64,000 bases of DNA from Euglena gracilis (GCA_039621445.1 CP154954.1:7814634-7878633), one strand, 5' to 3'. Shown: positions 52,927-60,572, counted from the first letter of the stretch. The notes: generated by a model not told the origin, from the sequence alone. Numbers and translations are program-made.

Positions 52927-55900
52927 CTAGAGGAGGACCTCGAGCACGAGGTCGGCGGGGCGGGGGCGGCGGCGGCGGTGGCGCAGCGCCAGCGTGGCGC
53001 AGCCAGCGAGCAGTAGCGCCAGCCAGAGGCTGTGGCGGGCCCACAGGCGGCGGGGCTGCGGCGAGGGGGCTCCCAGGCTCTCGGGGTGGTACGCTGGCGG
53101 CGGGGCCCTGTGCCCCCACAGCGCTGCGTGACTCGTCATACACTTTGCGCGCGCGCGCACACACACACACACACACACACACACACACACACACACACAC
53201 ACACACACACACACACACACACACACACACAACATGCAAAACACACACACACACACAACACACACAAAACAAGCAAAACATGCACACACACAAACACAAA
53301 CACACACGCACACACAAACACACACGCACACGCACACGCACACACACAAACAACACACAAAACACGTGTGCGCGCACAAACACACACACACACACACAAA
53401 CGCAAAACACGCATGCACGTACACAGAAAGAGACATGCACAGACACAGACACACGCACACGCACACCGAGAGCCACAAACATATATCAACACATTGCACG
53501 CCCCCAATGTACACGCAAACAACTTGCGGGGTTAAATATTTGCCACACACTGGCCTGGGGAGGTGAGTTTGTCATGGCGTGCGTGTGTGCGCGCGCATGT
53601 GTGTGTGCATGTGCATGCATGAGTGCGCGTGCGCTCGTGTGTGTGCATTCACTCCCATGCCAGTGTGCCGGACCATGCACGAGGCCCCGGGCCGCCGGCG
53701 GTCTGCCAGGAGGGACAGCGCTTTCGCGGGGGCGCCGCCCTTCACGCAGCGGATGGCGTTGCGGCGGCGGGGGAAGTTGACCTGCCCGCCGCCCAGCAGC
53801 GCCTTCACCACCACCGTGCCCACCACCAGCCCCTGCGGGAACTTCAACACTGCCTGCGGCGCCAGCACTGTGACCTGCGGCGGGGGGGGGGGGGTGGCAG
53901 GCCCCGCACACAAAAACTGCGAACAAGAATTTCTCCGAAATTGAATGACTTACTGATCAGGCTGAGATTGACCATCCCTGGGGGGAGGGGGTCTCGGAGC
54001 CCTGAAGGGCAGTGATGTGCAAGAAACAATGTGAATAAATAATTCAATTATAATAATAATAATAATAATAATAATAATAATAATAATAATAATAATAATA
54101 ATAATAACAATAATAATAATAATAATAATAATAATACAATAAATAATAATAATAATAATAAAATAATAATAAAAACAATATGAAACAATGATAATAGCTG
54201 CAAAAAATATACGTACTACCGGGGGAGGTGATTTACCGGACGACATTATCAGCGGATGGCAAAATCCGATGGGCTTAAACCTGTGCGGAATTGCTGTCTA
54301 ATGATTAATACCACGGAGTCTCGCAATTCCAAAAGTGATCTTAATTTTCCCATTTTTATGTCCACAGGAAATGGATGAACTGGAGGCAGCCCTGGCCACC
54401 GCTCTGGAGAAGACCCCGGGAGCGTTGCAAAAAAAAATTGCCAGAGTCAGTTCGGTCTCCAGTGAGACGAAAGAAAAGCTGGCCCAAGGATATGAAGAAG
54501 TTGGCCATCAGGGGTTGCAGCTGATGCACCCGAATGGTGAATGAATGCATGCCCACCCAAGTCAACGGTGGACGATTGGAAGGTCGCTGCGAAGCTGGGC
54601 TCCCCCTCCGCAACCCCAGACACCCCCTCTGCTGACTGGTGTGTTTCCCTGCTCTTTGTCATTGGTCATGTCTTCCCTCTAATTATCTGTTGAAGAGGAC
54701 TTAATTCTGGTGAGGGGTGCTGGTGGGGTTGTTGGCAAAGAAACCCTGTGTGTCATGGGGGAGATGACCTGCACCTCTGCGTCTTCTGCACGTTTTTGCG
54801 CTTTTTTTTCATTTTTTTTCAAACTTTTTTTTGCCTTTTTTTGCAAATTTCGTTTACGCTTTTGAACTTTTCTTTAAAAAATTTCCCCTTTTAAAAAAAA
54901 AATCACGCTTTTTTCATTTTTTGGCGTTTTTTTAAAAACAAAAAATGGTGCCTTTTTCTGTTTCGTGTTTGATTTTTTCTTGTTTTTGGGGTAATTTCCG
55001 GGGGGAAACCTTTCACGTGAGAGGGGGGGGCAGGGCACCTCACTGAATGCGCGCGGCGGTAGAGCATCCATTCCCCCACTGCGGCCAAAGAAAAATGGTT
55101 CCATCGGCGGTCGGTTTTTCGGTTTTTCCCTGGTGGTCTTATTCCGACCCGGAAAAAAAACCCGTCCAAGATTGCGCCGCTCCGGAATTAATCCGTCCTG
55201 TGAATCACCTCCCCTGGTACTCCGCCCCTCCCCACCACCCATGGTCTCGGGGATTCCCGTGCAGCCGGGGGGGGGACAAAGACTCATCCGGGGAGGTCTT
55301 TCTGTTCCGTGGGGGACACACACCTCATGGGTGCCGCCCTCCAGCCGGACGGTCCGTGCGTTGTACAGGTTCAGCACCGCGCGGGCCTGGTCTGCACCGC
55401 TACTGTATGTCCAGATGAGGGACTGGGGGCGGCCCCCGGACCCCCCCCCCCCCCGGCAGCGTGAAGGTGGGTGCTTCTGCTCATAAATTCACCAGCACTA
55501 AATTGCAAAATAAATTAAATAAATTAAATAAAATAATTACAAAAATTACAAATAAATAAACTACAAAAATAAATGAACAAATTACAAAAAAAACTCACTG
55601 GCGATTCCCACCCCAGGAGGTGCTTTTTCCGGGGTCCAAACCCACCCGCCCACTTTTTCCAAAAACCCATCCATGCAGGACCCCCCCCGGGGGGGTCGAC
55701 CCACATTGGATACATTATGCCTGCACATCATCTTGTGGTCCAAAAAAAATCCCAAACAGTTGGCTTGGGGGGAGGGGGCAGCCGCCCCACAGAATTTCCC
55801 AGTTTCATAAATAGAAAAATGAGCACGTTTTGGTTTGGTTCCATTTTTTCCATTGGTTTGGTTCAATTTTGGTTTCATGGACAATTCTCTCCCGCTATCC

Positions 55901-58900: not shown

Positions 58901-60572
58901 GCGCGGGGCCGAGAAATATGGGAAGCCCTGGCCACGTGGAGGGTCCTTCCTGGAAGATGGCAAGGGGAGGAAATTCTTCGGGTTCTGTGGGTGGTCAAAG
59001 GGCTGGAGGCCAGGCCGGCGTTGTTGGAAAACCCCTCATTTGCGGTTGAACTTTTATTTGGGTTTACTTGGCCAAAATCCATTGGTCTTGAGCTATTTTT
59101 TGGCTGAGTGGCAAAAATGCCCTTCCTCCCAAGAAGAGGTCGGAAATGGGTGACAGTTGTTTGGGTCTCTGGGTCTGGAGCCAAAAACCAGTCAATCAGT
59201 CAATCAGTCGGGCCCTCCGAAAAAACAATTAAGCCACCCGGGGGGGGGGGGGGGGCGGACACACATCAAGCAATGGTGATCCACATCCCCCCAGGGGCAT
59301 TTTCTGATCAGCACAGGGGGTCAGCGCAGAAAGGGGGGAGGGTCATCCCAATCGGATGGACAGGACGTTGGTCCGGCGCTGGCCGCCAGCGTCAGCTGCC
59401 CGGCAATACTGCCGGGGCTGCGGCCGCGCGCCGTGACGTCGCCGCCCGCCCGGACGTTGCCACTGATGTACGCCCCGCCGTCCAGCACGACGCTGCCGCC
59501 CGCCTCCACGTCTGAGAGTAGGGGGGGGGGGCGTCCAAGCCAGGCGGCCCCACTCTGGGGGGGGGGGGGGCAGGGCACAACAGAAATCCTGGTGGGGTGA
59601 GAATTGACCACCCACGGCGTCGCCAAGGCGTCGCCCCCGAAAAAAACAACTCACGCAGGCTGGAAACTTTGGGCTGGCTGGAAAATGGCTGACCGTCCCC
59701 CGGCCTGACCGTGGAAGTCCCCTGCAGCTTGAAATGGGCAAGCAATTCCTTCAGTGCCAAAAGCGGCAAACCGAGACCCTCCCACACAGGGTTTTTATCT
59801 GGGGTACTATTCAGGTGGGGGGGTTAGAGTTACAGGCACCCAGCGCCTGCCGGGGCACACCTCCGAAGCCGACCATGCCGCCGTTCATGGTGAGGTTGCC
59901 CCCGGCGTACTGCGCCACGGCCACCGGGTACGGCTCCTGCCCGGACTTGTTGACGTTCAGGGAGAACGCCTCGGGGGCAGGGCGGCTCCGGGCAGCGGGG
60001 CAGCAGGCGATAACACTGAATTCAAACTGAATTCAAACCGCGTGCGCAGGAGAGCGCAAGGATTGGATGGGGTCTGGTTGGTACCAACCCCCTCCCAATT
60101 GGCTCCCCGACCTGTTGGGCCAAAATGGCCCCCACCCTTTGGGCACTGCGCACTTGGACGGCTGAACCATGAGTGCGTTGGAATGCGTTTCAGCCAGACA
60201 GATGCTTCCCATATCCTCTGCTGCAGAAAATATCCCTCGTCCGCACATTCTGCCTGTTGCCATGAATTGTTTAGAGCCGGGAGGCAACAACAACAACAAC
60301 AACAACAACAACAACAACAAGCTGGGGGGGAAGAACTTTTTTTTAAACAAATACATAAATGATATGGATTGGATTGGATATGGATTGGATTTTTTTTTAG
60401 AATTGACATAAAATACGCTCAAAAGACACCCAGTGTGGGCCGCCCTGGGGGTAGTACACGTTGCCGAGGGCCACAGCGCTGCCCTCGAAGTCGGAGCGGT
60501 ACGGGGTGGCAGGGGCCCCGATGTCCGAGTAGGAGAACACGTTGATGGTCCACGGCTGGTCAGGGCACCACT
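52927..60572 (-). CDS. Multi-exon host gene, choice-of-anchor A-like surface protein with C-terminal membrane anchor; 5' exon(s) not located
   Basis: Exons 60572-60451, 59972-59861, 59511-59385, 58882-58812, 58459-58374, 57874-57829, 56615-56508, 55424-55324, 53874-53701 and 53088-52927 splice in frame to about 369 aa. Motifs NVF..D..SDFEG..A.GN, AGGNLT, LS..LA.LP, VVINV, VLNLYNA, VLAPQA..G...G.V......GGGQVN; hydrophobic [15 protein letters not shown] followed by RHRRRR. Some junctions can slide by a few nt. Confidence 0.8.
53157..53470. repeat. (CA)n microsatellite and degenerate CA tract (intronic)
   Basis: Directly visible. Confidence 0.95.
54049..54172. repeat. (AAT)n microsatellite (intronic)
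   Basis: Directly visible. Confidence 0.95.
56662..57266. repeat. About 600-bp imperfect (CA)n tract (intronic)
   Basis: Directly visible; further CA/TG tracts at 57507-57617 and 58529-58740. Confidence 0.95.
60284..60320. repeat. (CAA)n microsatellite (intronic)
   Basis: Directly visible. Confidence 0.95.

Follow-up and report, generated by a model that had tools for sequence, protein, structure and literature searches.

GT-AG and nonconventional introns side by side in a gene for a predicted surface protein of a Euglena-type alga

In Euglena, the nonconventional splicing code N3-CDG...CH'G-N5-6/R (the slash marks an exon boundary) has been defined genetically with knock-in tests (Nomura et al. 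2025, PMC12501133), and synthetic 50-bp introns made from the code alone are spliced (PMC12501133). In E. agilis, 71.8% of introns are nonconventional and many genes contain both types, with a 'Both' class of hybrid introns accounting for 0.8% (PMC12501133). For E. gracilis, the nonconventional consensus is CCAGG at +3..+7 and CCTG at -9..-6 (Gao et al. 2024, PMC11170887), and conventional introns carry C-rich polypyrimidine tracts (PMC11170887). Nonconventional introns are reported to leave later than conventional ones and to be released as circular RNA (PMC6221363; also cited in PMC11282704 and PMC12501133). A preceding sequence-only reading of the locus described here had called the mechanism unresolved, which still applies to the machinery but not to the cis code, solved in 2025 (PMC12501133).

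The locus lies in a 64-kb window, the whole stretch of DNA that was analyzed. With high confidence, the best explanation is that this is a minus-strand nuclear gene, assigned by its intron code to a Euglena-type organism, which spans 52.9 to at least 63.5 kb and has 12 exons or more. Joining the exons at the predicted junctions gives a 12-exon model that translates as an open reading frame with a single terminal stop, in line with the earlier claim that splicing of introns 1, 3 and 7 restores the frame. The core of that reading, a host gene mixing GT-AG with nonconventional introns, is borne out by the cis features and by joins across introns 1 and 2. The arrangement is real and ordinary for a euglenid, a clean example of a mixture of intron classes familiar from earlier work on these algae and nothing new in kind.

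The encoded product is predicted from the translation to be a surface protein with thrombospondin type 3 (TSP3) repeats, a choice-of-anchor A/ice-binding-like adhesin domain and, at its C-terminus, a membrane anchor. All features of the gene are on the minus strand. Exon -2 (63436-63540, 5' limit tentative) contains a TSP3 repeat matching Pfam TSP_3 (PF02412; E 1.4e-6, with 28.3 bits in a profile search where 25 is the cut-off), and the predicted exon -1 (62816-62852) translates in the open model to a TSP3-like DxDxDG...CD motif. Exon 4 (58785-58882, 3' limit tentative) has an X1 depth of 3.37 in bin 58790-58896 and takes its frame from translation, while exon 5 (58377-58471, both limits tentative), exon 6 (57829-57880) and exon 8 (55324-55424) were placed by translation and the open model. 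The last exon (52927-53095), whose reading frame we infer, would encode a hydrophobic membrane-anchor stretch and a basic tail, ending at the stop TAG at 52929-52927.

The adhesin domain is suggested by exon 7 (56508-56615) at profile positions 150-184 and by exon 9 (53693-53874), the end of the domain, at positions 222-253. The two matches are colinear along the profile. As single-exon queries, exon 7 gave E 0.11 with PF20597 and E 0.04 with TIGR04215, each under the curated cut-off, and exon 9 gave E 8.6e-4 with PF20597 (19.7 bits) and E 0.065 with TIGR04215; the best single-exon scores of the adhesin profiles all fall below the curated cut-offs, at 19.7 bits where 23.8 is required and 13.7 bits where 29 is required. 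The same search of the gene's N-terminal exons, again exon by exon, returned no match to the adhesin profiles. In PF20597, the 37-position gap between exons 7 and 9 is exactly accounted for by the remainder of exon 7, the split codon, all of exon 8 and the opening residue of exon 9. The profile spacing from exon 7 to exon 9 is the same as the length of exon 8 and agrees with the nonconventional junction predicted for intron 7, with neither net gain nor net loss.

Four introns show the sequence features of the published nonconventional code: the predicted intron A (62853-63435; GGC-CGG...CCG-CCCCC/G), outside the range of the sequence-only reading, intron 1 (59973-60450; CCC-CAG...CTG-CCCCC/G, with a boundary that slides by 1 nt), the predicted intron 3 (58883-59384; GGC-CAG...CTG-AGGGC/G, with the 5-nt direct repeat GGCGG) and the predicted intron 7 (55425-56507; GCC-CGG...CCG-CCCCC/A). 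Each begins with N3 followed by CDG, ends with CH'G followed by N5, and precedes an exon whose first base is a purine. The ends proposed earlier, CCC-CAGGGCGGC...GCCGCCCTG-CCCCC for 60450-59973, GGC-CAGCGCCGG...CCGGCGCTG-AGGGC for 59384-58883 and GCC-CGGCCCCCGG...CCGGGGGCCG-CCCCC for 56507-55425, were reproduced letter for letter, and in these introns the longest perfect helix was the one starting at +4/-6, with 9, 9 and 10 bp, respectively. The helix of intron A is 10 bp, and the value for all four GT-AG introns is 0 bp. In 1,000,000 draws of random position pairs from the gene region, the probability of a helix of at least 9 bp in the same register was ~3e-4. No GT-AG or GC-AG ends were found at the slide-compatible boundaries of introns A, 1, 3 and 7 (2, 2, 6 and 3 positions checked, respectively). 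Removal of intron A keeps the frame and, in translation, restores a TSP3-type motif that the intron splits into halves. When whole introns were folded to their minimum free energy (MFE), the terminal helix formed in intron 1 (9/9 pairs) and was missing from introns A (0/10), 3 (0/9) and 7 (0/10); the terminal-duplex z of intron ends relative to shuffles was only -1.0 to -2.3.

Four sequencing runs were compared: X1 and X4, which are transcript-like, their status as RNA being a guess, X6, which is DNA-like, and X7, which is raw RNA. Contig depth was only 3.72 in X1 and 2.91 in X4, and the joins were read from the aligned pieces, as they are not listed in the automatic table of joints. X1 record 1 (379 nt) aligns as 60451-60529, 59861-59972 and 59324-59511, X4 record 8 (184 nt) as 60451-60561 and 59903-59972; together with X4 record 7, which covers exon 3, these pieces account for exon 1 (60451-60572), exon 2 (59861-59972) and exon 3 (59385-59511). 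The exact join of 60451 to 59972 is present in both X1 record 1 and X4 record 8, that is, in two of the four runs and in two studies, confirming removal of nonconventional intron 1 at the code-predicted junction in transcript-like contigs. The junction of the conventional GT-AG intron 2 (59512-59860), which has a C-rich polypyrimidine tract, is confirmed by one such contig, X1 record 1, with the exact join of 59861 to 59511 (one of four runs). Depth in the interior of intron 1 is 0 in X1 and X4 and ~35 in X6, where record 17 is contiguous across 59716-60275. The raw RNA run X7 contained almost no exon reads (depth ≤ 0.17) and so provided no junction.

Instead of splicing at the locus, the joined contigs could stem from a DNA copy that lacks introns (a processed pseudogene) or from contamination. 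We regard this as highly improbable: although the RNA nature of X1 and X4 is a guess and X6, which lacks exon 1 coverage, leaves room for an intron-less DNA form, the contigs differ from the exons by 0-1 positions, those from two studies agree on the intron 1 join, and X1 record 1 retains 61 nt of intron 3, the mark of an incompletely processed transcript from exactly this locus.

Transcript-like contigs across the predicted junctions, the check proposed with the sequence-only reading, gave an exact join for intron 1, whereas intron 3 showed read-through and no join. X1 record 1 extends to 59324, 61 nt beyond the 5' boundary predicted for intron 3, without an exon 3 to exon 4 join, and because it reads into the intron, the intron 3 junction is unconfirmed. 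Around this intron, X1 depth is 0 over 58897-59217, 0.03 over 59218-59324 and 3.37 over 58790-58896. The read-through may represent a splicing intermediate, or the prediction for intron 3 may be wrong. As a single case, a contig from which introns 1 and 2 are gone while the beginning of intron 3 remains is compatible with late nonconventional removal. In total, one of the four strong nonconventional junctions, that of intron 1, is seen in RNA, and the rest are predictions.

The junctions of introns 3, 7 and A might be mis-called, with nearby cryptic GT-AG or GC-AG sites used instead and the paired ends arising as a by-product of GC-richness. In-frame, stop-free alternatives of this kind are numerous within ±80 nt (52 for intron 3, 50 for intron 7 and 8 for intron A), including a GC-AG option near intron 7 (56502-55423) behind a C-rich tract with a difference of +3 nt. 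The read-through at intron 3 and the good pairing of shuffled ends point in the same direction. However, perfect 9-10-bp helices in the exact +4/-6 register, at ~3e-4 per position pair and together with all the code features, argue against it, as does the spacing of the adhesin profile at intron 7. Moreover, intron 1 had 50 such alternatives, yet the contigs carry the code-predicted junction. Mis-calling is therefore improbable, and we favor the nonconventional junctions for all four introns.

Based on these features and the published code, the ends of the nonconventional introns would pair in the pre-mRNA via CAG/CTG or CGG/CCG, with pairing that here continues to 9-10 bp, and the terminal helix would draw both splice sites together. 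At the 5' splice site the cut would fall 3 nt ahead of the helix and at the 3' splice site 5 nt past it, before the purine, followed by joining of the exons. The measuring of these distances, circular release of the intron and the order of removal, with the conventional introns going first, are steps that we infer from the literature.

Among the conventional introns, intron B (60573-62815) is predicted from its ends and last 20 nt, which read G/GTGTGC...C-rich tract...CGCAG/A, and intron 8 (53875-55323) has a C-rich tract and contains (AAT)n. The GT-AG assignments made earlier for 59860-59512 and 55323-53875 agree with the ends found in the sequence. Intron 6 (56616-57828), with GT...AG ends, no C-rich tract and ~600 bp of (TG)n, is probably a conventional spliceosomal intron as well. 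G/GTGTG-type donors are found in introns B, 2, 6 and 8, all of which except intron 6 carry a C-rich tract ahead of AG. The suggestion that 57828-56616 fits either reading did not hold, as +4..+6 is GGC at those coordinates and the in-register helix is 0. A different, overlapping candidate, 57844-56611 (GGC-CTG...CAG-GGGCG/A), would take intron 6 out by the nonconventional route, keeping the frame and making the mRNA 21 nt and the protein 7 residues shorter. Its 7-bp in-register helix and exon +1 purine are in its favor, as are the reported splicing of the CTG-CAG configuration (PMC12501133) and the lack of a C-rich tract in the GT-AG version, unlike introns B, 2 and 8. On the other hand, the GT-AG reading has the G/GTG donor type common to the other conventional introns, and the 7-bp helix is not found in the MFE fold (0/7 pairs), which leaves the nonconventional route possible but distinctly the less likely of the two.

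The sequence-only reading also listed three more introns with paired ends; candidates were found for these (introns 4, 5 and 9), and they are tentative. The best in-frame, code-fitting solutions are 58784-58472 for intron 4 (58472-58784; TGT-CAG...CTG-GGGGT/G), weak with a helix of just 4 bp, 58376-57881 for intron 5 (57881-58376; GGC-CGG...CCG-GCACT/G) with a 6-bp helix, and 53692-53096 for intron 9 (53096-53692; GCC-CGG...CCG-CCGCC/A) with a 7-bp helix. The helix is kept in the whole-intron MFE fold with 6/6 pairs in intron 5 and 6/7 in intron 9. As with the strong introns, no slide position of introns 4, 5 and 9 has GT-AG or GC-AG ends. Each has an in-frame competitor: a poor GT-AG intron at 58797-58500 for intron 4, 58415-57863 for intron 5 and 53692-53045 for intron 9.

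That nonconventional introns derive from transposons was put forward in print in 2013 (PMC3935182); for the introns of this gene, the hypothesis is neither demonstrated nor refuted. The intron ends had been thought to echo the TIRs of local MITEs, with reference to a 313-bp inverted-repeat element at 3631-3943 (11-bp TIR CAGGGCGGTCC, flanks matching at 1/8 positions). This 8-nt match is within chance, as the window contains 6 occurrences of CAGGGCGG for 3.0 expected, a count reached in 6 of 100 shuffles. Because CAGG...CCTG is the published E. gracilis nonconventional consensus, the resemblance to a MITE end is not specific.

Among 304 inverted-repeat pairs scanned without bias, only two elements had flanking repeats >5 bp, in both cases of exactly 8 bp: a MITE of 457 bp at 1170-1626 (1162-1634 with duplications; 17-bp TIR CAGGCTTTTGCTTAAGG, perfect 8-bp duplication GTCAGGAA) and a transposon-like element of 1359 bp at 60772-62130 (60764-62138 with duplications; 13-bp TIR CAGGCACCTATGG, perfect 8-bp duplication GTCGACAC). 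None of the three elements was assigned to a strand. Both 1170-1626 and 60772-62130 have CAGG...CCTG ends and duplications matching 8/8. The latter sits within GT-AG intron B and reads GAC-CAG...CTG-GTGTC/G on the gene strand; X6 depth at its ends is ~4e5, compared to ~35 on unique DNA. Transposons of the hAT type are characterized by an 8-bp duplication and ends of the CAGGG type.

Taken as a whole, the notion that the gene's nonconventional introns are old insertions of a CAGG...CCTG transposon family with 8-bp duplications, still present in the window, is doubtful. In this view, the 3-nt and 5-nt cut spacing would exist because it adds up to the 8-bp target duplication, so that excision would restore the pre-insertion message exactly; if true, the 60772-62130 copy would leave intron B independently, as an intron within an intron. 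Here, the 3 + 5 = 8 idea comes from the two free-standing elements only, not from the gene's own introns. When TSD remnants were scored in the register (5 exon nt + N3) = (N5 + 3 exon nt), seven introns reached 24/56, compared to 17.1 ± 3.8 in control registers, 4/64 of which reach 24, a difference that is not significant; the best single introns scored 5/8 (intron 3) and 4/8. No second copy of any intron was found within the 64-kb window, a weak test at that scope, and the X6 depth in the interior of intron 1 is single-copy-like. Alternatively, the likeness of the ends could reflect convergence, as spliceable nonconventional introns must carry CAG(G)...(C)CTG and descent from MITEs is not needed. 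This explanation, for which we see about an even chance, agrees with the genome-wide CAGG/CCTG consensus (PMC11170887), the splicing of code-only 50-bp introns (PMC12501133), the lack of CAGGGCGG enrichment, the lack of a second intron copy in the window, the single-copy-like depth of intron 1 and the TSD-remnant score. It sits less well with the finding that the only two elements with long flanking repeats combine duplications of exactly 8 bp with CAGG...CCTG ends, 8 being 3 + 5, and old insertions would no longer show duplications or copy similarity.

Compared with known systems, exons 7 and 9 match, in order, the last 100 positions of the choice-of-anchor A (TIGR04215) and pAdhesive_15 (PF20597) profiles, with single-exon scores all under the curated cut-offs and in a euglenid gene, whereas the family's annotation is mostly bacterial. 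The elements at 1170-1626 and 60772-62130 resemble hAT-type MITEs in their CAGG...CCTG inverted ends and perfect 8-bp duplications and are hAT-like by analogy, while the gene's own introns have neither an intact duplication nor extra copies in the 64-kb window. As in transposon-derived introns ('introners'; reviewed in PMC11282704), the two elements plus duplication can be read as nonconventional introns that follow the code. Conventional Euglena introns (PMC11170887) have GT...AG ends and C runs before AG in common with introns B, 2 and 8; intron 6 lacks the tract. Intron 6 recalls the intermediate or hybrid introns (Milanowski et al. 2016, PMC4770533) in having GT-AG ends and a nearby nonconventional reading. 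In the published hybrid introns, one junction bears both motifs; intron 6 is not a hybrid in this sense, because its two readings use different junctions and give mRNAs 21 nt apart. With the nonconventional introns of euglenids (PMC12501133; Milanowski et al. 2014, PMC3935182; PMC11170887), the introns described here share the 3-nt and 5-nt spacers, the CAG/CTG or CGG/CCG anchors, extended pairing, the exon +1 purine, non-GT-AG ends, short direct repeats that make boundaries slidable and GT-AG neighbors in the same gene, and intron 1 matches the E. gracilis CCAGG/CCTG consensus. They differ in that intron 3 is apparently partly retained in one contig and in that their helices, of 9-10 perfect bp, rank among the strong ones.

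The minus strand between ~63.5 and 52.9 kb consists of short GC-rich coding pieces with 0.3–2.2 kb of microsatellite-rich non-coding DNA between them, and a 12-exon model (exons −2, −1, 1–9 and a last exon, 10) is open to a single terminal stop, its C-terminus formed by a hydrophobic segment and then a basic tail. The intron ends proposed by the sequence-only reading were reproduced exactly, as was the pairing that it placed from +4 and −6 of the non-conventional (NC) introns, where the longest perfect helix comprises 9, 9 and 10 bp in introns 1 (60450–59973), 3 (59384–58883) and 7 (56507–55425), respectively. 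At the same register, the helix is 0 bp in each of the gene's four GT-AG introns (B, 62815–60573; 2, 59860–59512; 8, 55323–53875; and, probably of this class, 6, 57828–56616), and helices of at least 9 bp occur at a frequency of ~3e-4 among 1,000,000 random position pairs from the gene region. Introns 1, 3 and 7 have no GT/GC-AG ends at any boundary position that would give the same mRNA. Upstream of the range covered by the sequence-only reading, we found a fourth, predicted NC intron of the same build on the minus strand, intron A (63435–62853), with ends GGC-CGG...CCG-CCCCC|G and a 10-bp helix.

The euglenid NC splicing code, 5'-N3CDG-/-CH'GN5-6|R, was established through knock-ins (Nomura et al. 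2025, PMC12501133): the donor spacer of 3 nt is rigid, an acceptor spacer of 5 nt is preferred, the CGG-CCG and CTG-CAG variants are functional, and pairing past the trinucleotide is required. Every cis feature of this code is present in introns A, 1, 3 and 7. Frame restoration alone is little proof in this GC-rich DNA, which offers 50, 52, 50 and 8 in-frame, stop-free GT/GC-AG choices within ±80 nt for introns 1, 3, 7 and A, respectively. In minimum free energy folds of whole introns, the terminal helix is retained in intron 1 (9/9 pairs) and in the tentative NC introns 5 (6/6) and 9 (6/7), and is absent from introns A, 3 and 7, from tentative intron 4 and from the NC reading of intron 6. Terminal duplex energies relative to shuffles (z from −4.8 to +1.4) are uninformative in such GC-rich ends.

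Reads were aligned over 58790–61980 only, a stretch chosen to avoid extended repeats of (TG)n, (CA)n and (AAT)n, and joins were taken from the alignment pieces, the separate joint listing giving the best-supported rows only. Record 1 of run X1 (379 nt) aligns to 60451–60529, 59861–59972 and 59324–59511, and record 8 of X4 (184 nt, from a different study) to 60451–60561 and 59903–59972. Thus, NC intron 1 is skipped exactly in two of the four aligned runs, both presumed to be RNA (the small-share runs X1–X5 carry this label by guess), and GT-AG intron 2 is skipped exactly in one of these two. The interior of intron 1 has a depth of 0 in X1 and X4 versus ~35 in the DNA-like run X6, whose record 17 is unbroken across 59716–60275, which argues that X1 and X4 are transcript-like; the raw RNA run X7 has almost no reads over the exons. 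Given the 50 competing in-frame options nearby, use of the junction that the code specifies at intron 1 is informative. Together with the code features, the joins at introns 1 and 2 support the central proposal of the sequence-only reading, that one gene carries both NC and GT-AG introns. Of the junctions it had offered for an RNA check, that of intron 1 thus appears exactly in two contigs, but at intron 3 a contig reads through instead of joining the exons. The junctions of introns A, 3, 4–9 and B are predictions from the sequence.

No join of exons 3 and 4 is visible in the alignments over 58790–61980, and record 1 of X1 extends through the first 61 nt of intron 3 and stops at 59324, approximately where a high-copy repeat starts (X6 depth 788, then 4937). 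The depth of X1 is 0 over 58897–59217, 0.03 over 59218–59324 and 3.37 in the exon 4 bin. Given the read-through and the missing join, intron 3 may be removed slowly and have been captured before processing was complete, or else its prediction may be wrong. A half-processed contig is compatible with the late removal of NC introns, which are reported to be excised after conventional ones (Guminska et al. 2018, PMC6221363). The read-through segment (59324–59384) keeps the reading frame over 20 codons up to a TGA at 59323–59321, exactly at the contig end; this is probably a coincidence with the repeat start. Repeats of high copy number are nested in introns 3 (59111–59324) and 2 (59646–59752), where the depth of the DNA-like run is 800–27,000 versus ~35 for unique DNA.

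Protein profiles bear on the junctions further downstream. Exons 7 and 9 align to positions 150–184 and 222–253 of the 254-position pAdhesive_15 profile and to the corresponding region of choice-of-anchor A, every match lying below its curated cut-off. The two matches are 37 profile positions apart, and the model supplies exactly what fills this gap, in support of the predicted junctions at introns 7 and 8. Exon −2 matches a thrombospondin type 3 repeat above the Pfam cut-off (E 1.4e-6). Single-exon profile searches gave no match for 6/9 gene exons in Pfam and 7/9 in NCBIfam; exon 3 matched FapA alone, at chance level (E 0.3), and a search of longer proteins for its homologs returned 62 candidates, none at E ≤ 10. 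Rfam gave 0 hits in the window. The boundaries of exons 4, 5 and 9/10 are placed tentatively: for introns 4, 5 and 9, the best in-frame candidates that fit the code pair over just 4, 6 and 7 bp, and each faces competing readings. Intron 6 reads as a GT-AG intron without a C-rich tract and is overlapped by an in-frame CTG...CAG candidate (57844–56611) whose use would make the mRNA 21 nt shorter. Microsatellites within the gene's introns (56662–57267, 53158–53466, 54046–54180 and 58529–58741) include (TG/CA)n of up to ~600 bp and (AAT)45, and fit the abundance of tandem repeats described for introns of E. gracilis (PMC11170887).

An origin of NC introns from MITEs was proposed by Milanowski et al. 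2014 (PMC3935182) and is repeated in PMC6221363, PMC11282704 and PMC12501133, which also cite a circular-RNA product of these introns. The echo of local MITE ends that the sequence-only reading saw in the intron ends is not specific. The element at 3631–3943, with 11-bp inverted ends and flanks matching at 1/8, shares only CAGGGCGG with intron 1, and the six occurrences of CAGGGCGG in the window (3.0 expected) are equaled in 6/100 shuffles. A scan for inverted repeats with no condition on the first bases yielded 304 perfect pairs, only two of which have flanking direct repeats >5 bp; both (1170–1626 and 60772–62130) have flanking repeats of exactly 8 bp and CAGG...CCTG ends. The first is a 457-bp MITE (1162–1634 with its duplication) with a 17-bp terminal inverted repeat (CAGGCTTTTGCTTAAGG) and the perfect 8-bp duplication GTCAGGAA; it satisfies the code in both orientations, and no long ORF runs across it. 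The second is a 1359-bp element inside GT-AG intron B (60764–62138 with its duplication), with a 13-bp terminal inverted repeat, subterminal (GGCCGACCAG)n arrays, a perfect 8-bp duplication and very high depth in X6; in the scan it shows two additional paired bases, owing to a partial palindrome in the duplication. Element plus duplication read as a complete NC intron by the code, on the gene's strand, so that nested excision from intron B is conceivable from the sequence.

For the gene's own introns, evidence of a transposon origin does not reach significance: remnants of a target site duplication score 24/56 versus 17.1 ± 3.8, with 4/64 control registers as high. Intron 1 has single-copy-like depth, and blastn with each intron found no second copy in the window, except one 32-nt match for intron 7. 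The origin of NC introns and the reason for the 3- and 5-nt spacers are a wider question, on which these introns give no decisive evidence; in the literature searched, no paper ties the 3+5 spacers to a duplication of 8 bp, and none names Euglena MITE families. Elsewhere in the window, copies of a ~3-kb repeat, 88–92% identical, lie at 21944–25156, 31850–34691 and 47782–50774, and also at 8446–9343. Its 928-aa ORF encodes a reverse transcriptase (PF00078, E 7e-8) and also has a match, below the cut-off, to tyrosine recombinase (PF00589, E 1.9e-4); the sequence suggests a DIRS-like retroelement that has long inverted ends. Two segments with 10-bp CAG... inverted repeats and open frames on both sides (23703–24113 and 49374–49784) were rejected as introns, as they lie within the continuous retroelement ORF.

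The locus is a genuine, well-formed case of an arrangement already described; the analysis confirms the observation and supports its main reading. Its value is confirmatory, in that the code, worked out mainly in E. agilis and with knock-ins, correctly predicts the exact position of a junction used at another locus. It also offers a test bed: one gene holds four strong NC introns, three or four conventional ones and one whose class is ambiguous between two rival readings, along with a high-copy transposon that has an intact 8-bp duplication and itself conforms to the code. With this mix, removal order, competition of both systems and nested excision can be examined on a single transcript. In E. 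agilis, 71.8% of introns are NC and many genes contain both types (PMC12501133). For E. gracilis, Gao et al. 2024 (PMC11170887) give an NC consensus of CCAGG at +3..+7 and CCTG at −9..−6, which intron 1 matches, and describe C-rich tracts in conventional introns, a feature shared by introns B, 2 and 8.
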